A stretch of 64,000 nucleotides of DNA, taken from Escherichia coli. Lineage in GTDB: Bacteria > Pseudomonadota > Gammaproteobacteria > Enterobacterales > Enterobacteriaceae. Positions 1,452 to 62,495 of the stretch are shown here, piece after piece. Location of the stretch: NCBI RefSeq assembly GCF_051903065.1, contig NZ_CP178438.1; one strand, written 5' to 3'. Under the pieces are notes generated by a model, which worked only from the letters and a program-made list of their open reading frames with translations, made no database searches and had not been told where the DNA came from. A program made the position numbers and the translations under genes. Position 1 is the first letter of the stretch, and each line of letters starts with the position of its first letter.

Positions 1452-1527
1452 TCCTCTGTAGTTCAGTCGGTAGAACGGCGGACTGTTAATCCGTATGTCA
1501 CTGGTTCGAGTCCAGTCAGAGGAGCCA
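1452..1527 (+). tRNA. asnU: tRNA-Asn (anticodon GTT)
   Basis: 76-nt sequence TCCTCTGTAGTTCAGTCGGTAGAACGGCGGACTGTTAATCCG...GGAGCCA matches the E. coli tRNA-Asn cloverleaf with GTT in the anticodon loop. Which asn locus name applies is inferred from neighbours. Confidence 0.93.
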
Positions 1528-3860: not shown

Positions 3861-3936
3861 TCCTCTGTAGTTCAGTCGGTAGAACGGCGGACTGTTAATC
3901 CGTATGTCACTGGTTCGAGTCCAGTCAGAGGAGCCA
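3861..3936 (+). tRNA. asnV: tRNA-Asn (anticodon GTT)
   Basis: Identical 76-nt tRNA-Asn sequence to the copy at 1452-1527. Confidence 0.93.
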
Positions 3937-3973: not shown

Positions 3974-3991
3974 TTCTAATTACCAACGCTC

Positions 3992-4924
3992 TTAAAACAT
4001 CTGTCTTGAACCAGAACTAATTTGCACAGGCATTCCCGATCGACGTTGCAACGCAGCATTTGCGCGATTCACATCAACTTCTTGCCCGTTGATAAACGCC
4101 CGCAAAGATGGGGTTACCGGCAATGGCACTTTTCGGTCAGACTCATATTCTGCACGATTGCGCGACAACGGCTCATGAACTTCCAGCCAGTTCGAGCCAT
4201 CTGGTTCAGTGGTGTATTTTACTGGCTGGTCGATAATTTGCACACGCGTCCCAACAGGAACATTATCAAACAGATATTTGATATCGTCATTGCGCAGACG
4301 AATACAGCCCTGACTTACCCGAAGTCCAATACCAAAATTGGCATTGGTACCGTGGATGGCATACAACCTGCCAATATAAATCGCGTACAGCCCCATGGGA
4401 TTATCGGGCCCCGCAGGAACAAATGCGGGCAAACTCTCCCCTCGTTTCGCATATTCGCGCCGAGTGTTCGGCGTTGGCGTCCAGGTTGGAGCTTCTTGTT
4501 TACGTTCAACGGTAGTCACCCAGTTACGCGGGGTTTCTCGCCCAGCCTGGCCGATACCAATAGGAAAGACTTCCACAGTATTACTGTCTGGCGGGTAGTA
4601 ATAAAGACGCATCTCAGCGACGTTAACCACAATCCCTTTACGAACAGTGGCGGGCAAAATCAGTTGCTGCGGAATGGTGAGTTGTGAGCCGGACTTCGGC
4701 AAGAAAACATCAACGCCCGGGTTCGCTTCCAGCATGTTACTTAACCCTTGCCCGTATTGTGCGGCAAAAGTCTCCAGCGGCTGGGTATTGTGATCAGGAA
4801 CAGTTACAGTAAGCGACTGCCCCACTAAACGGCTACCCTCTGGAGGTAATGGATAAGTTACCGCCAGGCTAGTATGGCTGGCAAAAAGCAGAGCAAATGA
4901 GCAAAGAATATTTACACGACGCAT
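3992..4924 (-). CDS. ldtA: L,D-transpeptidase (YkuD/ErfK family), signal peptide
   Basis: Translation [21 protein letters not shown]... with the catalytic region ...[20 protein letters not shown]...; lies beside cobT. Confidence 0.85.
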
Positions 4925-16411: not shown

Positions 16412-16449
16412 GCAAAAAATAACCGACGCTGATGAAACGTCGGTTTTTA
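16412..16449 (-). terminator. Candidate terminator downstream of yeeY
   Basis: Stem AACCGACG...CGTCGGTT with T-runs on both sides. Confidence 0.5.
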
Positions 16450-16531
16450 GTCATTTTTTGACAGCGGCGCATTGTGCCTAAATGGGGGGGAAATGACAAG
16501 AGAATGAGAGGCTTGTCATAATAATTTTTCT

Positions 16532-18757: not shown

Positions 18758-18808
18758 ATGACACGCGTTCAATTTAAACACCACCATCATCACCATCATC
18801 CTGACTAG
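18758..18808 (+). CDS. hisL: his operon leader peptide
   Basis: ATG ACA CGC GTT CAA TTT AAA CAC CAC CAT CAT CAC CAT CAT CCT GAC TAG = MTRVQFKHHHHHHHPD with seven consecutive His codons. Confidence 0.92.
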   Translation: MTRVQFKHHHHHHHPD

Positions 18809-18869
18809 TCTTTCAGGCGATGTGTGCTGGAAGACATTCAGATCTTCCAGTGGTGCATGAACGCATGAG

Positions 18870-18908
18870 AAAGCCCCCGGAAGATCACCTTCCGGGGGCT
18901 TTTTTATT
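18870..18908 (+). terminator. his attenuator terminator hairpin
   Basis: AGCCCCCGGAAGATCACCTTCCGGGGGCTTTTTTATT between hisL and hisG. Confidence 0.88.
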
Positions 18909-23297: not shown

Positions 23298-25375
<2,078 letters not shown>

Positions 25376-25382
<7 letters not shown>

Positions 25383-32638: not shown

Positions 32639-33501
32639 AACGATTTTCCTTTAACTTTATTCTTGATTTTTACAAGAAAAAGACATGTAATAAATAAAAC
32701 GAAAACAGTAAATTTTGTCTTTTTCTTTACAACTATTAGATTACTAATATTAAAAATGGGAATAAAATGAAAAACGGTTTGTTTAATGACATTAATACCA
32801 AGACCTTTTAGATTCAAGTTATTGATAACAAAAGCCATCGTGCCATTGATGTTTTTCCGCAAAAGATCAGTATAATTAGAAGTTAAACCTCCTGGTAAAT
32901 ATTCACTATAATAGATGATCTCATTGAAATATTTAAAGTAGCCATTTTCTAAAATTGAATTCCAAACCAATGCCTCAGTTATAAAATTTTCACCATCAAA
33001 AACAGGAAATTGATTTTTAAGTAAAGAATCACGTTTTATGATTAATGCTTTATCTCCCTTTGTACCTGCAAACTTTTCCAGAGAAATATTTTCAATTGTT
33101 TCCGCTTTACCTACAATCTCTTTTGTAGTTTTATACCCCCTCAGGAAAACCATCCCTTTACATTTATCATCAACAATTGCCTGGATTTTTTCATTGGCTA
33201 GAGCAATAGCGTTGGGCGTTAATATATCATCACTATCAACAATAAATATCCAGTTAAACGACGAAATTTCTATCCCTATATTTAAGGCTGTGTGTTTTCC
33301 ACCGTTCTTCTTATATCTATATATGATTTTAAATGGGGATGTCGACGCTATTTTGTCAATAACCTCTTTTAAATTATCAGTAGAACCATCATCAATTATC
33401 ACCCATTCAAAATCATAAGATTGTTGTGACATTAAGGATTCATATAATTCATAGACTAACAAAGCTCGATTGAATACAGGAGTAATTACTGAAATTGACA
33501 T
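32635..33501 (-). CDS. O-antigen glycosyltransferase, GT2 family
   Basis: 288 aa, MSISVITPVFNRALLVYELYESLMSQQSYDFEWVIIDDGSTDN. Confidence 0.75.
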   Translation of the reverse strand: MSISVITPVFNRALLVYELYESLMSQQSYDFEWVIIDDGSTDNLKEVIDKIASTSPFKIIYRYKKNGGKHTALNIGIEISSFNWIFIVDSDDILTPNAIALANEKIQAIVDDKCKGMVFLRGYKTTKEIVGKAETIENISLEKFAGTKGDKALIIKRDSLLKNQFPVFDGENFITEALVWNSILENGYFKYFNEIIYYSEYLPGGLTSNYTDLLRKNINGTMAFVINNLNLKGLGINVIKQTVFHFIPIFNISNLIVVKKKTKFTVFVLFITCLFLVKIKNKVKGKSL

Positions 33502-34796: not shown

Positions 34797-36023
34797 CTAG
34801 TTACCTTCATTGATATAGTTAACACCTTTATCAATTGCCTCCAATATATAATCAATCATACCATACACACCCTCAGTAAATGGATGATTATTTAGGAAAG
34901 TAAACATGTTATTCCCTAAAGACACATTATACATTAAATACAAAAAAGGCACTAAATTTACTACATATAAACAAATAAGTAGGGCATATTTACTCCTACC
35001 TTTTCTCTCAAAAGCTTTTAGATAAGGTAAAATAAAGTAGGGATAAAAACCAAAAATAATCATACCCAATCTATTCGAAAGTGCTGGGAAAGGTAATAAT
35101 ATTAAGAATAGAAAACACTCCTTACAAAATAAAATCTTATTAAAATCATCACATTTACTTCTCTTCCCTATCATTATAATAAAGCATATATTTACGACTG
35201 TAATGATAATATAATTTAACGGCAAACGTGTGAATTTATCGTTCCCAGAAACTGAAGTGAATTTCGATAATAGCACAGAATAAATTGGCGTATTATAAAC
35301 CACAAAAAACACAACTAAAAGTCCAATAAGAATAGAAAAAACAATTTTTGCATATGAGTATTTTTTTGAACCAAAGATCATATAAACTGCATATATAAAA
35401 ACATTAACAACTGCAGACATGTGAAAAAAAACACTCAATAAAAAAAAGATATATTTTTTAAATGAACGCTCATTTATAGCATACAGAAAAACAACCACAG
35501 ATAAAACCTGTCGAAGAAAATATGATGTAACTTCTATAAATCCTAAGTTAAAAAAGAAAAGCGATAATAAAAAAAGTTTATATTTTTTTTCAACATCTTT
35601 AAGAATCTTGGATAAAAAAAAGACGATCAGAAAATAAGTAGAAAGTAAAAATACTTCATCATTGCCATCTGAAATATACCCAATAAATTTCATGATGGCT
35701 AAAAACATAAATTCCAGCCCATCACCAAATCTTGAATAGCCAAAAACATCAATTAAATTATAATTTAACTCATGGTAAACATGAAGATACTCTGCAATAT
35801 CTCCAAATGGTTTTAGTGTGGAAAAAAAAATAATAATAAACACCAATAGTGCATAAAAATAAAAATTACGCAATACTGGGTGTAACAATGGCGAGAGGGC
35901 ACCAATAAATATCAATACAACAAGAGGGTAAAAGAATGTTGCCAATAATAACAAAGGAATAAAATATACAACACAGTTATTATTTGACAATGAATTTTCA
36001 TTGCTGTTTTTATAAATATTCAT
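34797..36023 (-). CDS. wzy: O-antigen polymerase (Wzy)
   Basis: 408-aa very hydrophobic Phe/Ile/Leu-rich protein with about 10-12 predicted TM segments, typical of Wzy; lowest-GC gene in the window. Confidence 0.68.
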   Translation of the reverse strand: MNIYKNSNENSLSNNNCVVYFIPLLLLATFFYPLVVLIFIGALSPLLHPVLRNFYFYALLVFIIIFFSTLKPFGDIAEYLHVYHELNYNLIDVFGYSRFGDGLEFMFLAIMKFIGYISDGNDEVFLLSTYFLIVFFLSKILKDVEKKYKLFLLSLFFFNLGFIEVTSYFLRQVLSVVVFLYAINERSFKKYIFFLLSVFFHMSAVVNVFIYAVYMIFGSKKYSYAKIVFSILIGLLVVFFVVYNTPIYSVLLSKFTSVSGNDKFTRLPLNYIIITVVNICFIIMIGKRSKCDDFNKILFCKECFLFLILLPFPALSNRLGMIIFGFYPYFILPYLKAFERKGRSKYALLICLYVVNLVPFLYLMYNVSLGNNMFTFLNNHPFTEGVYGMIDYILEAIDKGVNYINEGN

Positions 36024-36854: not shown

Positions 36855-36895
36855 TAAATAACGCTACCGCCCCTGGCTTTACAGCTACCAGAGCA
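36855..36895 (-). promoter_or_regulatory. JUMPstart element with ops (RfaH-dependent antitermination) upstream of the O-antigen operon
   Basis: Plus-strand AACGCTACCGCC is the reverse complement of GGCGGTAGCGTT (ops core GGCGGTAG); surrounding CCCCTGGCTTTACAGCTACCA also occurs upstream of wza. Confidence 0.7.
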
Positions 36896-37156
36896 CTGCA
36901 TGCATGTCTACGATGTGACGAGCGTTACCCACTCGCGCTTAACTCGAAAAATTCAAACGCTAATTGTCTTACCAATCCGCTCTGGAAACAAGGAAAATCC
37001 TGGAAAACTTTGACTAAAATCCTATTGCTAACTCGTTGTTATTCTGATTGTTTATATAAAACAACGGCAGGAATATTCGCAACAAATTACTTTCGCCACG
37101 AATCCTCACTGCCGTTATAATTTTCTTATCAACCGTTACATCCGGTCAGATTTTCA

Positions 37157-43409: not shown

Positions 43410-43597
43410 GCCTGATGCGACGCTGGCGCGTCTTATCAGGCCTACAAGACCCGAGCACAGAACCGTAGGCCGGATAAGGCGTTCACGCCGCATCCGGCAT
43501 TCAGTGCCTGATGCGACGCTGACGCGTCTTATCAGGCCTACAGGTCCCGAGCACAGAACCGTAGGATGGATAAGGCGTTTTACGCTGCACCCGGCAA
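43410..43597. repeat. REP/BIME cluster (about 4 units) between wcaK and wzxC
   Basis: Repeated GCCTGATGCGACGCTGGCGCGTCTTATCAGGCCTACA... / ...GGATAAGGCGTTCACGCCGCATCCGGCA units. Confidence 0.8.
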
Positions 43598-47923: not shown

Positions 47924-48012
47924 GTCGTTACCCTTTTTCAGGCAATAGTTGGCCCTGACCGAAGCGGCCAATTTTGTTTTTGTCGTTATTTACACCGCGG
48001 TTTCGCATTCAT

Positions 48013-53937: not shown

Positions 53938-54684
53938 TTAGCTTTTGTTATATAAGGCTTTCGTCTTTGAGGTAGTACGCTGGCGTAAATGCCAGGATAG
54001 TTCTGCCCAGAAGCCAGGCACATGTAATATTTGCCGTTGGACTTTTTTGGCGTCAGCACACAATTCCATATTATTGGTGGTTGATACCCCACCCATAGAA
54101 AATTCAGACACCAGACCATTGAGTTTTTTAAATGCATAACCGGCTTTATACATTTTGGCTGCCAGCGCGTAATCAGAAGAAACTTTATATTCCAGGTCAT
54201 AACGCCATTTTTTCAAACCGGATACCGGGAAAAATATCGCCTGATGACTGGCGGGCAGGCTGTGATAAATATACCAACCCGGTTTGGCGCTACGTTTAAT
54301 TTTATGCCCGTCGCCAAAATCCAGCAGCGCATCGCCGGTGATCATCATGTTATCTTTTTGCATTTTTAACTTACGGACAAAATTTGCGGCATCCTGATGA
54401 AAAATATCGCCCGAGTTGAGAAACAACGCGAACTTGCCTTGTGCCATCGCAATGCCCTTGTTCATGGCGTCGTAGATACCGTTATCTGGCTCGCTGACAA
54501 AGCGTAGGTTATAGATACCATTGAGATTTTCCAGGTACTCACGGGTGCCGTCATTGGAACCGCCATCGACAACAATCCATTCGAAGCTGATATCGTCCGC
54601 CTGCGCCAGATGCGCCAGCGAGGCGTGTGTTTTGACTATCCCTTCGAGGTTACGAAACGCGACAGTGATTATGCTAAGCAACAT
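53938..54684 (-). CDS. wcaE: Colanic acid glycosyltransferase (GT2)
   Basis: 248 aa, [23 protein letters not shown]... Confidence 0.9.
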
Positions 54685-54694
54685 GTTCTTATTC

Positions 54695-55912
54695 TTACCT
54701 CGTAATATTTAACGCTTTTCGCAAAATAAACGGACAGACGATTAAAAATGCATATTCCGGGCTAAATATCGAACCGGTAAAAAACAGCGATACCGGAGTA
54801 AAAAGATATAATTGCACGCGAAAATTGCGGTTATCACCAAAAGCGTTGATCATCATTTTTATCACTTTCCCCATGTACCACAGCGATAAAAACACCGCGA
54901 ACCAGGAAAAATAAATAATCAGCAGATACAAACCATTGTCTATGGTTTTTCCGATATCCGCACCGTTAAATATTCCGAATGATGCGACATATTCATAAAG
55001 TGAGCCAAATCTGACTACACCGTCAATATGGGTCAAAGAATAACCGACCATCACCAGCGGACCGACAATACGATAATACGATGACGATCCTTCCGTACCT
55101 AAATCGCCCAGACGGGTGGAAATATAAGGAAACGCGATTACCACACCAACCAGGAATACAGCCAGAGAAATCAATGCTAACGGTAACTTTTTCTTAATCG
55201 CCTCTTTATTCAGATATTGAAATGCCCACTCCAGCAAATAAAACAGGATAAAGGTCATAACCCCTGAAAACGATCCGGATAATATTATCCCTGCGAGAAT
55301 CATAGCATCTGTTTTAGGCGTTTTGATACCAAACTGTTTGATGCTGAGCCAAATTGAGATTAATGCCAGAGCGAAAAATGCCGGTTCGAAATAAAGTGCT
55401 GTCGTGCGCTTGCCGCCGAATTTAATGAAATTCAGCACATAGCTGTTGCTGTAAATCAGATATTTCGAAATCGACTCCATAATACTGCTGCCACCGGTGA
55501 GGATAATTTGCGCCATCTCCACCGCCGCCAGCGCCACCACCAGCCCGACCACCAGATAAAAGAAACGTAATATCTTGCGATGGTTGTGTGGCGAAATTGT
55601 TTTAAAACGAATACTCCACACCATGCCAATAATGATCACAATATAGACAAACAGCATGGTTGAAGTGACGTATTTACTGGCATCCAGCGACTGACCAAAC
55701 AGATAGTTAAACGCCGTGAGTCCCGCACCAATCCCTAAGGCAATCATCAATTTTTTAACGCTGATGCGTTCTAAAAACAGCAGTAACAAGACAGGTAAAA
55801 AAGTGACGATAGTGATGGGGAAACTTTCACCAAGCTGGGCGATTTTGACGTTAACCAGCAGGTAGATCAGCGGCAGCAGCAGGTAGCTACAGATTCTGAT
55901 AGAAGTTGACAT
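54695..55912 (-). CDS. wcaD: Colanic acid polymerase
   Basis: Internal ATG gives [22 protein letters not shown]...; the track ORF extends 24 codons further into wcaC. Confidence 0.85.
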
Positions 55913-57104
55913 ACTCCTCCAGCATCTGTTGTCCACTGTAGGCGGCGCGGCTGCGCTGGCTGAACTCAGCCAGCGTGGTACCAAATATCGCCTGCGCGAT
56001 TTCCGGTTTGCTTAACTGGACCAGTTGCAGCACGTCTTCTTCGCTGACGGTTTTACCGCCGGATTTTTGCAACACTTCACGCGCCGCGTCGCTATGGGTG
56101 GCAATCACCGGCACGCCAATTGATAACGCCTCACACAAAATCAGCGGGTAGTTATCGACACGAGAACTGAACACCAGCGCATCCATCTGATTGAGCGCGC
56201 TCATCAGCTTACGTTTGTCGGTTTCAAAGCCGTGATTGACCACGTTGCCAGCGGTGAACGGCGAGAACTTACCGAAGGTATGCAGTTCGATTTTGTCGTC
56301 CAGCGCCATCATCTCGCGCACCAGTTGCTGGTTAGTTTTGCCGTCGTAACGCAGGTCATGCGCTACCACCGCGATTTTCGGCTTGCCCTGAGTTTCGCGC
56401 ACCGGAGGCAGATCCGCCAGAATCGCTTCGGTTGCCATATCAATACCGTTATTGATAATCCGGCAACGCCCTGGACCGTACAGGCTATTGAAAGCGTCAG
56501 CCACATGCTGGCTGGGGGAAATAAACTGACAGCCCAGCGCCAGCATCTCAAGGAATAACTGGCGTTTGCCCGCCACCAGTTGGTGTGCGCGATCAATCTT
56601 CACCGGCGGATAATTATTTAAGGTCGGGCATTTCTGGCAGCCCGTTTTCCAGCCTTCACAACCGTCAGTAAAGGCGCAGCGCCCGGTAACGCTCCAGTGG
56701 TCGTGCAGCGTCCAGACCAGAGTGACATCCGGTTTGTGGTTTTTCACCTTTTCGCAAAAGCGCACCACGCTCTTAAGATTCAACCAGTAGCTGTGCAGCA
56801 CATGAAAATGCAGGACCACCGGACCCGGTGTGCGAGTAATGGTGCGATATAACTCATTGAAATTGCCGAACAGATCGCGATTAAACAGACGAAACAGGGC
56901 AATGTTCGCCATCGCAGTCATCCGCGGCGTATGTTTGATGACCTGCGGATAGTTTTGATGGCTGACGCTCTCTTTGCCGCCTTTGCCGTAGCCGTAGACA
57001 AAATGTGACGCCAGCCCCTGTTGCAGCGCACGCTGGTGGAGATCTAACGCCACACCTGCTGCCCCGCCTTCCGCCAGTCGCACATTAAATTGCAAAATAT
57101 TCAT
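55887..57104 (-). CDS. wcaC: Colanic acid glycosyltransferase (GT4)
   Basis: 405 aa, MNILQFNVRLAEGGAAGVALDLHQRAL... Confidence 0.9.
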   Translation of the reverse strand: MNILQFNVRLAEGGAAGVALDLHQRALQQGLASHFVYGYGKGGKESVSHQNYPQVIKHTPRMTAMANIALFRLFNRDLFGNFNELYRTITRTPGPVVLHFHVLHSYWLNLKSVVRFCEKVKNHKPDVTLVWTLHDHWSVTGRCAFTDGCEGWKTGCQKCPTLNNYPPVKIDRAHQLVAGKRQLFLEMLALGCQFISPSQHVADAFNSLYGPGRCRIINNGIDMATEAILADLPPVRETQGKPKIAVVAHDLRYDGKTNQQLVREMMALDDKIELHTFGKFSPFTAGNVVNHGFETDKRKLMSALNQMDALVFSSRVDNYPLILCEALSIGVPVIATHSDAAREVLQKSGGKTVSEEDVLQLVQLSKPEIAQAIFGTTLAEFSQRSRAAYSGQQMLEEYVNFYQNL

Positions 57105-57589
57105 TTGATTACCTTCACTCGCGCTTTTTCTCCCACCACCAGCGCGTTGTCCGGGACAGAATCGAGCACCACGCTGCCCGCGCCCACGGTGACGTTGTTA
57201 CCAAGCGTGATATCACCAAGAATAATGACGTTGGCACCGAGTTCGACGCCGTTGCCAATGTGTGGACATGCCATGTTATCGGCACCACGATTGCCGATAG
57301 TGACGCCGTGGCGAATGGTAAAATCATCCCCCGCTACCACGTTTTTATTGATCACTACGGCGTAACCGTGATGGATAGTAAAGCGGCGGCCAATGGTCGC
57401 GGCAGCCTGGATTTCATAACCGAAAAAGCATTCGGTGATAATGCGATACAGCACCAGCAGCGGGGCCGCCCACAGATTGTTGAGAACGTTCTTTTTGCGC
57501 CACACCGAACAAAAATGAGCGACGCGATAGGCAAGAACCATGCAGCACGGGCGTAAACTCCAGCTGTTGGCGCGTAGATCTTCCAGCAT
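57101..57589 (-). CDS. wcaB: Colanic acid acetyltransferase (hexapeptide repeat)
   Basis: 162 aa; ATGA overlap with wcaC. Confidence 0.9.
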   Translation of the reverse strand: MLEDLRANSWSLRPCCMVLAYRVAHFCSVWRKKNVLNNLWAAPLLVLYRIITECFFGYEIQAAATIGRRFTIHHGYAVVINKNVVAGDDFTIRHGVTIGNRGADNMACPHIGNGVELGANVIILGDITLGNNVTVGAGSVVLDSVPDNALVVGEKARVKVIK

Positions 57590-58523: not shown

Positions 58524-60686
58524 TTATTTCGCATCCGACTTATATTCGTATTCGTAATAGCCATAATCCTGATACGCGCTGGCGCGGCGGATGATGGAGT
58601 TCAGAATCACCCCTTTCACCGGAATACCGTTTTGCTCAAAGCGGCTCAGACTGGTTTCCACTTCTTTCAATGTGTTGACCGCATAACGCGCCACCATTAA
58701 CGTGGTTCCGACATGACGACCAACAATTGCGGCATCGGTCACTGCCAGAATCGGCGGCGTATCAATCAACACCAGGTCGTAGTTTTTACTCGCCCAGTTC
58801 ACCAGTTCGGCAAAGCGTTCGCTCATCAACAATTCAGAAGGATTTGGCGGTACCTGACCGCGCGGGATCAGGTCAAATTTGGCAATCGAAGTGGGTTTAG
58901 CAGCGGTAGTAATATCGCCCTGACCAATCAGAATTTCCGACAGGCCATTGACGTTATTGGTGCCCAACAGCTCGTGGGTGTAGCCTTTGCGCATATCGCA
59001 GTCGATCAACAACACGCGTTTATTGGTCTGGCTGATCACCGCCGCCAGGTTGGCGCAGACAAAGGTTTTACCGATTGACGGGCTAACCCCGGTCATCATC
59101 AACACATTGTTCTGCGCCTGCATCATCGCGAAGTGCAAACTGGTACGAAGACTGCGGATGGCTTCAATCGCCAGATCGGTTGGATTCCCCACCGCCAGTA
59201 GCTGGCTCTGTTTATAGCGTTTAACTCCTTTGATGGTTTTGACGCTATCGCGCGCTTTTTGCCACTCCGACAGAGGAATACTGGCATAGACGCTGATGCC
59301 ATGTTCTTCCAGCACCTGTGGGCTTTCGATGCCGCGATTAAACAACGAGCGCAGCAGTACACCCACGATAGAAAGCATCAGGCCGAGGATAATCGCCCCA
59401 AGGATAATCAGCCCTTTCTTCGGTTTCAGTACACCTGGCTGGGTGATTGCCGGGTCAACAATGCGCACATCGCCGACGGTGCTGGCTTCGGTGATTTTCA
59501 GCTCCTGCTCTTTATTCAGCAGTTGCATATAGACCTGCTGACCAGACTCGACATCGCGGGTCAGACGGACAATCTCCTGCTGGGTTTTCGGCATCGCCGT
59601 TACGCGACCGTTAAGTTTGGCTTTTTCGTCTTCCAGCGCCTGACGTTTCTCCAGCAGCGTGCGGTACGCCGGGTGAACTTTGGTGTAAAGTTTGGAGATT
59701 TCCGCCTCTTTAAAGGTTAGTTCGTTCAACTGCGCGTCGATGTTCACCATCGAATCGAGCACCGCTTTCGCTTCCAGCGGCAGATCAACGGAATCTTTAT
59801 CCTGACGGAAGGTATTCAGTTTGTTTTCGGCAACATCGAGGCGGCTACGTACTTCCGGTAACTGTTGCGCGAGGAAAGCGAGGCTTTTCGACGCTTCCGC
59901 CGATTTGCGCTCAATATTTTGTTCCTGATAGTTACGGGCGATGCTGTTAAGAATGTCGCGGATCTGTTCGCGATCTTCACCGGTATAAGTCAGGCTCAGT
60001 ACGCCTGCGTCTTTGCCGTTCTCCGTTACCGTCAGGCTGTTTTGCAGTTGGTTGATCATCCCCAGCGTGGAGTATTTGGTGATGGTAAACTCACTGCCCG
60101 GGCTGGCGTGAATAGCTTCAACCATCAGCGTGACGCCTTCTTTTGTCAGCATCTGGCCCGCTTGCCCACGGGCGCTAAAGCTGCCATCGCTGCTCAGAGT
60201 GTAGTTTTTATCGTCCAGCACATTAAGCGTAAACACCTGGTCCGCCATCTCTTTCGGGCGGTTAAAGGTAGTCACTTTCACCGTCTCGTTCTGCCGTCCC
60301 ATCAGGCGATCCCAGCCCGCACCGAAAATCGGGAACGTGTTTTTGCTCACCGCAATATCGAGGTCGAGATCGTCCACCGTTTTACCAAGCACCAGACGCG
60401 AACGAATCAACTGGATCTCGGCGTCCGATGCAGGCGGTTTGTTGGCTAATGCCGAGCCGATATCCTGTACTAACGAATTGCCGCTGTTTTGCTCGATTTG
60501 TACCAGTGCGTCGGCACTATAAATCGGCGTGGCGAAGAAGGTGTAAACCACGGCACAGACGGCAAATACAGCGGTGATGCCAATCACCCACCAGCGCGCT
60601 TCAATGACGGTGCCGACCAGGCGACCAATATCGATTTCATCACTGCCCGTTACCGGAGCGGCATGTTGTTTTACTTTTTCTGTCAT
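58524..60686 (-). CDS. wzc: Tyrosine autokinase / polysaccharide co-polymerase
   Basis: Internal ATG gives MTEKVKQHAAPVTGSDEIDIGRLV...; Walker A GVSPSIGKT and a Tyr-rich C-terminus YGYYEYEYKSD. Confidence 0.92.
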   Translation of the reverse strand: MTEKVKQHAAPVTGSDEIDIGRLVGTVIEARWWVIGITAVFAVCAVVYTFFATPIYSADALVQIEQNSGNSLVQDIGSALANKPPASDAEIQLIRSRLVLGKTVDDLDLDIAVSKNTFPIFGAGWDRLMGRQNETVKVTTFNRPKEMADQVFTLNVLDDKNYTLSSDGSFSARGQAGQMLTKEGVTLMVEAIHASPGSEFTITKYSTLGMINQLQNSLTVTENGKDAGVLSLTYTGEDREQIRDILNSIARNYQEQNIERKSAEASKSLAFLAQQLPEVRSRLDVAENKLNTFRQDKDSVDLPLEAKAVLDSMVNIDAQLNELTFKEAEISKLYTKVHPAYRTLLEKRQALEDEKAKLNGRVTAMPKTQQEIVRLTRDVESGQQVYMQLLNKEQELKITEASTVGDVRIVDPAITQPGVLKPKKGLIILGAIILGLMLSIVGVLLRSLFNRGIESPQVLEEHGISVYASIPLSEWQKARDSVKTIKGVKRYKQSQLLAVGNPTDLAIEAIRSLRTSLHFAMMQAQNNVLMMTGVSPSIGKTFVCANLAAVISQTNKRVLLIDCDMRKGYTHELLGTNNVNGLSEILIGQGDITTAAKPTSIAKFDLIPRGQVPPNPSELLMSERFAELVNWASKNYDLVLIDTPPILAVTDAAIVGRHVGTTLMVARYAVNTLKEVETSLSRFEQNGIPVKGVILNSIIRRASAYQDYGYYEYEYKSDAK

Positions 60687-60688
60687 TC

Positions 60689-61132
60689 TTATACCTGCTC
60701 TGCGTTCAATGCCTGCGCCCACTGGCGGGCAGACCGTTCAAGTAATGTGTACACCGCTGCAAACGTTTCCCGGCTTTTGCGATACGGATCGGGGATTTCA
60801 CATTCGTTATCCCAGTGACCAAACAGCATCACTTTGCCGCGCATCTCAGGTGCCATCTCGCATAAGCGTTCGATATGGCGCTTTTCCATGGTCAAAATCA
60901 GGTCATAGTTGCGACACAGGCGGCGGCTGATTTGCCGTGCACAGTGACCTTCCAGAGACAGTTGATGCTCTGCGGCAACGCTGATGGCGGTAGGATCAGC
61001 GCCCTTACCGACCAGCGCGCCGAGTCCAGCGGACTCCACTTTCAGCTCCGGGTGATAACGTTGCAGTAAGCGTTCCGCCGTCGGGGAACGGCAAATATTG
61101 CCGACACAGACAACTAAGATGTTGTTAAACAT
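60689..61132 (-). CDS. wzb: Low-molecular-weight protein-tyrosine phosphatase
   Basis: 147 aa, MFNNILVVCVGNICRSPTAERLL (CX5R motif). Confidence 0.93.
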   Translation of the reverse strand: MFNNILVVCVGNICRSPTAERLLQRYHPELKVESAGLGALVGKGADPTAISVAAEHQLSLEGHCARQISRRLCRNYDLILTMEKRHIERLCEMAPEMRGKVMLFGHWDNECEIPDPYRKSRETFAAVYTLLERSARQWAQALNAEQV

Positions 61133-62439: not shown

Positions 62440-62495
62440 TTTCAGGCATCCAGACACGCTACCGCCCCTGGCTTTTTAGCTACCAATACACTGAT
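62440..62495 (-). promoter_or_regulatory. JUMPstart/ops element in the wza 5' leader
   Basis: Plus-strand CACGCTACCGCCCCTGGCTTTTTAGCTACCA; reverse complement contains GGCGGTAGCGTG; about 180 nt upstream of wza. Confidence 0.75.

Follow-up and report, generated by a model that had tools for sequence, protein, structure and literature searches.

Here we analyze the junction between wcaC and wcaD, two genes of the colanic acid (wca/cps) operon of Escherichia coli, in a 64,000-nucleotide (nt) stretch of contig NZ_CP178438.1 (assembly GCF_051903065.1); this whole stretch is hereafter called the window, all positions refer to it, and both genes lie on its minus strand. On the evidence of sequence comparison, wcaD almost certainly starts at the ATG codon at position 55912, inside the 3'-terminal part of wcaC. 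The overall explanation that we consider highly probable combines this start codon with a Shine-Dalgarno (SD) sequence embedded in wcaC, an old and fixed overlap of 26 nt between the two genes, and an upstream extension of the wcaD reading frame that stays open by chance. The junction is already known and correctly annotated, and the present finding re-derives the existing annotation. In addition, an mRNA hairpin is predicted over the wcaD start region, and its possible part in coupling the translation of the two genes is discussed below in more tentative terms. The coordinates of all features are collected in Table 1.

The wcaD frame contains three candidate starts, namely TTG 55984 and GTG 55936, located 24 and 8 codons upstream of the ATG, respectively, and ATG 55912 itself, which gives the N-terminal sequence MSTSIR; the corresponding overlaps with wcaC are 98, 50 and 26 nt. 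The original prediction had described the frame as open for 24 codons upstream of the MSTSIR start, with an overlap of up to 98 nt for the longer open reading frame (ORF) and of 26 nt even for the shorter one, and codon-by-codon reading from TTG 55984 and ATG 55912 to the end of wcaC at 55887 reproduces these values exactly. The gene order of the operon is wza-wzb-wzc-wcaA-B-C-D-E-F-gmd-fcl-gmm-wcaI-cpsB-cpsG-wcaJ-wzxC-wcaK-L-M, with wcaD between wcaC and wcaE, as expected for WcaD.

To compare the start region across species, we used one genome per species, which yielded 80 Enterobacteriaceae loci and, together with the window, an alignment of 81 rows; Salmonella, Citrobacter, Enterobacter, Kosakonia, Buttiauxella, Cedecea and Mangrovibacter are among the genera covered. 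Each of the 81 rows has the wcaD ATG, CAGATGCTGGAGGA ahead of it and an overlap of 26 nt. The sequence CTGGAGGA ahead of the ATG is likewise invariant in the 81 species, with only its last base varying (G, A or C). Judged from this conservation, the 26-nt out-of-frame overlap, which encodes both the C-terminus of WcaC and the N-terminus of WcaD, is ancient and has become fixed in the colanic acid operons of the Enterobacteriaceae.

The upstream extension presents a different pattern. A WcaD protein initiated at TTG 55984 or GTG 55936 would carry 24 or 8 additional N-terminal residues, and peptides specific to the long form would derive from VPRWLSSASAAAPPTVDNRCWRS. In the window this frame is indeed open, and bacteria can initiate at TTG and at GTG, which recur in other species (TTG at codon -24 in 56 of the 81 and GTG at codon -8 in 51). 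However, codon -24 is TCG, TTA or TCA in the other 25 species and codon -8 is GCG in the other 30; a stop codon lies within the 24-codon extension in 6 of the 81 species, and two species lack any upstream in-frame start whatsoever. Depending on the species, the frame is open for 13 to 76 codons upstream, with the position of the closing stop varying accordingly. Moreover, the extension evolves like the third positions of wcaC and not like a part of the wcaD frame: variation within it peaks at wcaC codon position 3 (1.26 bits of column entropy), which corresponds to position 2 of the wcaD frame. Over the longer region from -300 to -17 relative to the ATG, entropy is 1.20 bits at wcaC codon position 3 compared with 0.51 at position 1 and 0.38 at position 2, and a wcaD frame that was coding here could not have its variation concentrated on second positions in this way. 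Beginning at +26, the periodicity turns to that of the wcaD frame (1.10 bits at position 3 and 0.12 at position 2), which implies that translation in this frame covers the sequence right after the wcaC stop; the sole conserved start at or before +26 is ATG 55912.

The length of the open run is itself unremarkable because, inside wcaC, a stop codon appears in the wcaD frame every 29 codons or so (14 stops in 405 codons) and the run upstream of the ATG comprises 33 codons. An in-frame ATG, GTG or TTG precedes the annotated start, with no stop in between, in 17 of the 59 annotated genes of the window. By these sequence criteria, the 24 open codons up to TTG 55984 are an accidental stretch in the +1 frame of wcaC that is not translated as part of WcaD. 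The same ambiguity is seen at wzc (60686..60722, minus strand), for which the ORF list gives a GTG-started ORF of 732 amino acids (aa) at 58524..60722 and the annotation gives an ATG 12 codons downstream (720 aa) that lies 2 nt after the wzb stop; sbcB has an in-frame start 24 codons upstream.

The candidate starts also differ in their potential to pair with the 3' tail of 16S rRNA. The core GGAGG of the wcaD SD occupies positions -8 to -4, with a 3-nt spacer to the ATG, and the predicted pairing at -9.3 kcal/mol is the strongest of the three candidates and among the stronger values in the operon, whereas pairing upstream of TTG and GTG is weak or absent (-6.0 and +0.9 kcal/mol, respectively). 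The original prediction had proposed looking for a ribosome-binding site (RBS) upstream of each candidate start, and the outcome of this comparison favors the ATG.

An SD-like GGAGGAG immediately upstream of an overlap in which the second gene is in the +1 frame of the first is also what a programmed +1 frameshift of the prfB type would employ, with the internal SD as the stimulator and a WcaC-WcaD fusion as the product. The sequence that follows, GAG UAU GUC AAC UUC, lacks a slippery codon and a stop or rare codon at the required spacing, and the invariant ATG located 3 nt past the SD is more simply explained as an initiation site. Furthermore, among the homologue matches listed, lengths and coverage fit WcaD alone, with the exception of one WcaD-GT2 fusion and two ENA artefacts. 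We therefore rejected the frameshift fusion for want of a shift site after the SD, and its probability appears to be close to negligible.

Family models and public annotation point to the same start. The long ORF matches the NCBIfam equivalog model TIGR04010 with a score of 871.7 bits (cutoff 589.65), and positions 1-404 of the 404-position model align with residues 25-428 of the 429 residues, so that the family model begins at ATG 55912; the activity of WcaD as the polymerase of colanic acid repeat units is assigned by homology. WcaC matches the equivalog model TIGR04015 with 892.5 bits (cutoff 784.85), with model positions 1-405 aligned to residues 1-405, the C-terminus encoded by the overlap included; Pfam domains of the GT4 type are detected in this protein as well. 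The window differs from the genome of E. coli ECNB21-M121 (NZ_CP083585.1) at 9 of the 64,000 positions, without insertions or deletions, and in that record RefSeq/PGAP places the wcaD start at the ATG with the 26-nt overlap. This start is also the annotated one in a strain derived from K-12 and in a wca allele that has diverged to 79% identity. The exact 405-aa WcaD is encoded on at least 1000 contigs, and neither the 429-aa nor the 413-aa form occurs among the roughly 15 billion predicted proteins of the collection searched. This absence, the comparative sequence data, the family model and RefSeq strongly back the choice of the MSTSIR start in the original prediction, and initiation of WcaD at either upstream codon is very improbable. 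As a point against the ATG start, our literature search found no report of an experimentally determined WcaD N-terminus or of start-site profiling, and the one ribosome-profiling paper that mentions wcaD deals with S1 acetylation and is silent on the start codon.

Four full-length, non-chimeric representatives of the WcaD family that we examined by sequence all begin with MS[TR]SIR. A word-indexed protein search for more distant relatives returned only proteins with at least 82% identity, and an exhaustive search of a library of clusters at 50% identity yielded a single usable intermediate, P0138, a WcaD homolog with 46% identity whose locus, L086, encodes a WcaC with 47% identity. At the junction in this locus (3980..4014), the codon matching the E. 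coli ATG is ATA and is preceded by a TAG at a distance of 3 codons, and the called wcaD start is shifted 4 codons downstream, giving an overlap of 14 nt in the same phase; either of two intervening GTG codons may be the start instead. The respective assembly (GCA_022258985.1) is AT-rich and contains a rearranged colanic-acid-like cluster. Another relative, P0155 (51% identity), has a 26-nt overlap according to the gene caller, and this is known from the call and not from the DNA. Two further distant candidates, P0161 and P0173, are located on fragmented, low-quality contigs. A 521-aa ENA entry, P0017, is a chimera: its first 126 aa or so are unrelated to WcaD and continue in frame into WcaD at approximately residue 11. 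An insertion, an engineered construct or an error of assembly is the probable origin of this entry.

The overlap and the SD are part of a nearly invariant block of 42 nt that extends from -16 to +25 and shows entropy close to zero except at -2, +5 to +7, +9 and +16 to +18. Within E. coli, 4724 of 4811 genomes carry this block exactly as in the window; for the two flanking 42-mers, the figures are 614 of 4736 and 3046 of 4811. Among the 185 wcaC codons that are degenerate and specify an invariant amino acid, only 8 keep an invariant codon, and 7 of these are among codons 393-405. The synonymous sites of the SD-bearing codons CTG and GAG are frozen, and none of the 11 other CTG codons for invariant leucines in wcaC is. 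Two synonymous sites that are invariant, -14 (CAG versus CAA) and -10 (CTG versus TTG), lie upstream of the SD core; in the predicted structure they pair with +20 and +16, respectively. In contrast, at the wcaB/wcaC junction (a -4 ATGA overlap), which we used as a control in 72 of the same loci, synonymous variation continues as far as -3 and is reduced in the SD core alone.

The hairpin predicted at the wcaC/wcaD junction places the SD in the 5' arm, AUGUCA in the loop and approximately the last six codons of wcaC, to the U of the UAG, in the 3' arm. Folded as an isolated segment, the E. coli hairpin has a predicted free energy of -16.7 kcal/mol (z = -3.68), and none of 200 shuffled sequences is as stable; the same hairpin appears in folds of 81 and 201 nt. 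In the other species, the values range from -11.9 to -15.2 kcal/mol, with z between -1.7 and -3.5. The pairing is kept in 99% of the cells of the 81-row alignment, which contains 67 distinct sequences. One of the variable positions bears on the strength of the predicted stem: at +5 to +7 (55905..55907, minus strand), E. coli has AAC versus TCG in nearly all other genera, a change that alters both proteins (Asn400 versus Ser in WcaC and Thr3 versus Arg in WcaD) and that, with AAC, adds three predicted pairs and shifts the energy from -12.4 to -16.7 kcal/mol. A CsrA-type GGA site at the junction was considered and set aside, given that the GGA motifs are in the predicted stem and not in the loop. 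A separate, perfect 9-bp hairpin, GCUGGCUGAGUUCAGCCAGC, lies inside wcaC in the extension region (55954..55975, minus strand); it is probably specific to E. coli, because this region is highly variable among species, and probably incidental.

The original prediction took wcaC and wcaD to be probably translationally coupled, and such coupling is plausible. The two genes are overlapping, co-directional neighbors on the same strand, as coupled pairs are. A scan for promoter and terminator consensus sequences in 54500..57300 gave counts at or near the expectation from shuffled sequences and no site at the wcaC/wcaD junction, so that nothing points to a transcript of wcaD alone; the Rfam 15 search at the gathering threshold produced 8 matches in the window, none of them near 55887..55984.

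We propose that the hairpin, with the end of wcaC as its 3' arm, would lock the RBS of wcaD, and that ribosomes finishing wcaC would open it and briefly expose the SD and the AUG. WcaD synthesis would then follow the translation of WcaC via RNA unfolding and not via a restart by the same ribosome. With the UAG in the A site, the terminating ribosome would cover the mRNA from about +8 onward; it would thereby keep hold of the 3' arm and leave the SD and the AUG exposed, yet would stand partly in the way of a 30S subunit binding at the AUG. Coupling of wcaC to wcaD through this hairpin is, on the folding model, a tentative proposition that falls somewhat short of an even chance. Slightly more tentative still is the reading of the 42-nt block as a conserved regulatory hairpin that would close the polymerase RBS unless wcaC is translated and would tie the output of WcaD to that of the glycosyltransferase; under this reading, WcaD output would probably be held below glycosyltransferase output.

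Several observations weigh against the hairpin. In the 81-nt context, z is only -1.27; the upper stem is weaker in most species than in E. coli; and the 3-nt spacer between the SD and the AUG is short. RNAalifold and explicit pair counts over the 81 sequences revealed no pair changed on both sides, that is, no covariation, which can be attributed to the freezing of the 3' arm by dual coding and of the 5' arm by amino-acid and SD constraints; with both arms frozen, conservation of the hairpin is inseparable from these constraints. In the L086 locus, the sequence of the E. coli hairpin is not conserved, and the analogous predicted hairpin, whose loop contains the AUG and whose 3' arm borders on the wcaC stop, is weak (-9 kcal/mol, z = -2.0). 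Finally, given that the frozen sites -8 and -5 lie within the SD core, the case for a constraint in addition to those of the SD and the overlap comes down to two synonymous sites, -14 and -10.

Under an alternative reading, WcaD would be initiated independently from its strong SD, without coupling; the block would then owe its invariance only to dual coding and to selection acting on the start codon and the SD, with the hairpin being incidental. The SD, the start codon and the overlap of two reading frames account for every frozen position between -8 and +25, and the rank of the wcaD SD among the stronger ones in the operon, the lack of covariation and the modest z in the 81-nt context all fit such independent initiation. 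The invariance of -14 and -10 in 81 species does not, considering that comparable invariance is found elsewhere in wcaC at roughly 1 of 177 codons and at 0 of 11 CTG codons; nor do the stability of the isolated hairpin beyond all 200 shuffles and the control junction, where constraint ends at the SD core. We regard independent initiation as nearly as likely as the hairpin mechanism, and thus likewise as a possibility below an even chance.

Under a third possibility, the ribosome that terminates at the wcaC UAG would move about 23 nt back and restart at the wcaD AUG with the aid of the SD, which could capture a 30S subunit. Bidirectional scanning after termination has been proposed for the coat-lysis overlap of phage fr, which is 34 nt long (Adhin and van Duin 1990, as cited in PMC10666635). 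However, in the synthetic constructs of Tian and Salis, according to a 2025 review (PMC12548453), coupling falls as the overlap lengthens and is absent at -25 nt, so that simple termination-reinitiation is not the obvious mechanism for an overlap of 26 nt; furthermore, post-termination scanning has been found to be rare and local in native E. coli gene pairs (Huber et al. 2023, PMC10666635). Restart by the same ribosome thus appears improbable. The RNA-unfolding model has been considered to fit long overlaps such as that of MS2 coat and lysis (PMC12548453), and -26 falls in the phase (-8, -11, -14, etc.) that is the commoner one among long overlaps (PMC10666635). Coupling of wcaC and wcaD, if any, is more likely to act through RNA unfolding.

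Within the window, the overlap of wcaC and wcaD is the longest. We mapped the junctions of the his and wca operons from the annotation and checked them on the window sequence. The wca operon has 19 junctions, with 4-nt overlaps at wcaB/C, gmm/wcaI and wcaK/L, no 1-nt overlap, the -26 at wcaC/D, six gaps of +1 or +2, and values of +5 to +275 at the remainder. The his operon has 7 junctions, with a 4-nt overlap at hisD/C, 1-nt overlaps at hisC/B, hisB/H and hisH/A, and distances of -19, -7 and +5 at hisA/F, hisF/IE and hisG/D, respectively. Stop-start overlaps of 1-4 nt, said in the original prediction to be found at many other junctions of these operons, do exist in both, but the "many" amounts to only 7 of the 26 junctions. 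Apart from wcaC/wcaD, the only his or wca overlaps longer than 4 nt are those of hisA/hisF (19 nt; 24606..24624, plus strand) and hisF/hisIE (7 nt; 25376..25382, plus strand). The O-antigen cluster, annotated with wzy and wzx of the O38 type, has annotated overlaps of 14 nt between a hypothetical gene and wzy (36010..36023, minus strand) and of 16 nt between wzx and a GT2 gene (33486..33501, minus strand). The two JUMPstart elements of the window are as expected for long RfaH-dependent polysaccharide operons, and REP-like repeats are visible in the cpsB-cpsG, wzxC-wcaK and wzc-wcaA spacers.

Table 1. Features of the wcaC/wcaD junction and RNA elements elsewhere in the window
Feature	Position	Strand	Basis and details
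wcaC coding sequence, colanic acid glycosyltransferase, 405 aa	55887..57104	-	ORF list, TIGR04015, RefSeq; stop TAG 55887..55889
wcaD coding sequence, colanic acid polymerase (Wzy-type), 405 aa	54695..55912	-	Start ATG 55910..55912; TIGR04010, RefSeq/PGAP, species alignment
Longest wcaD-containing ORF, TTG start, 429 aa	54695..55984	-	ORF list
wcaC/wcaD overlap, 26 nt, wcaD in the +1 frame relative to wcaC	55887..55912	-	Codon-by-codon reading
24-codon upstream extension of the wcaD frame, part of wcaC only	55913..55984	-	TTG 55982..55984, GTG 55934..55936
TAA closing the wcaD frame, 33 codons before the ATG	56012..56014	-	Codon-by-codon reading
SD of wcaD, GGAGGAG, within wcaC codons L395-E396-E397	55914..55920	-	Invariance and anti-SD pairing
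Nearly invariant 42-nt block, -16 to +25 relative to the ATG	55887..55928	-	Column entropy
Predicted mRNA hairpin, -17 to +23	55889..55929	-	Minimum-free-energy folding
JUMPstart element (RF01707), upstream of wza	62455..62493	-	Rfam
JUMPstart element (RF01707), upstream of the O-antigen cluster	36860..36898	-	Rfam
algC RNA motif, just upstream of cpsG	47928..47977	-	Rfam
naRNA4, REP-derived, in the 275-nt wzxC-wcaK spacer	43468..43538	+	Rfam
His leader	18784..18907	+	Rfam
Small RNA STnc240	16412..16486	-	Rfam
tRNA gene (tRNA-Asn in the annotation of the matching record)	1452..1524	+	Rfam
tRNA gene (tRNA-Asn in the annotation of the matching record)	3861..3933	+	Rfam

The value of these observations is mainly that of quality control: the existing annotation, with the ATG start, the 405-aa product and the 26-nt overlap, is right, and a long overlap of a type that is often suspected to be a misprediction is, in this case, genuine and ancient. 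Beyond this, the hairpin predicted to cover the RBS of wcaD is of modest interest. If real, it would represent a natural case of coupling of the unfolding type at -26 nt, a distance at which reinitiation reportedly fails, and could account for the way in which the production of a Wzy-type polymerase is matched to that of the enzymes that make the polymerase substrate. Re-engineering of colanic acid operons would also have to take it into account, as WcaD expression would then change whenever the end of wcaC is recoded.

Among known systems, the pairs coupled through start-stop overlaps (ATGA at -4, TAATG or TGATG at -1; Huber et al. 2019, 2023) resemble wcaC and wcaD in that the genes are co-directional and belong to one operon; the difference is that the wcaD start and the wcaC stop are 23 nt apart and do not overlap, so that the spacing of -26 is neither the -4 nor the -1 of termination-reinitiation. 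The parallels under the hairpin mechanism would be MS2 coat-lysis (-50 nt) and rpmI-rplT (+52 nt; PMC12548453), with which the junction shares a downstream RBS in a hairpin that is partly translated with the upstream gene, predicted in the case of wcaD, and, in addition, an overlap too long for efficient reinitiation. The structure at wcaC/wcaD differs from these two in being predicted only and in showing no covariation, and differs from MS2 in that the overlap of 26 nt is short enough for a terminating ribosome to partly block a 30S subunit at the wcaD AUG. With the wcaC-wcaD junction as annotated in Enterobacteriaceae (RefSeq PGAP; TIGR04015 and TIGR04010), there is no difference: the genes, the start codon, the 405-aa products and the 26-nt overlap are identical in the window.

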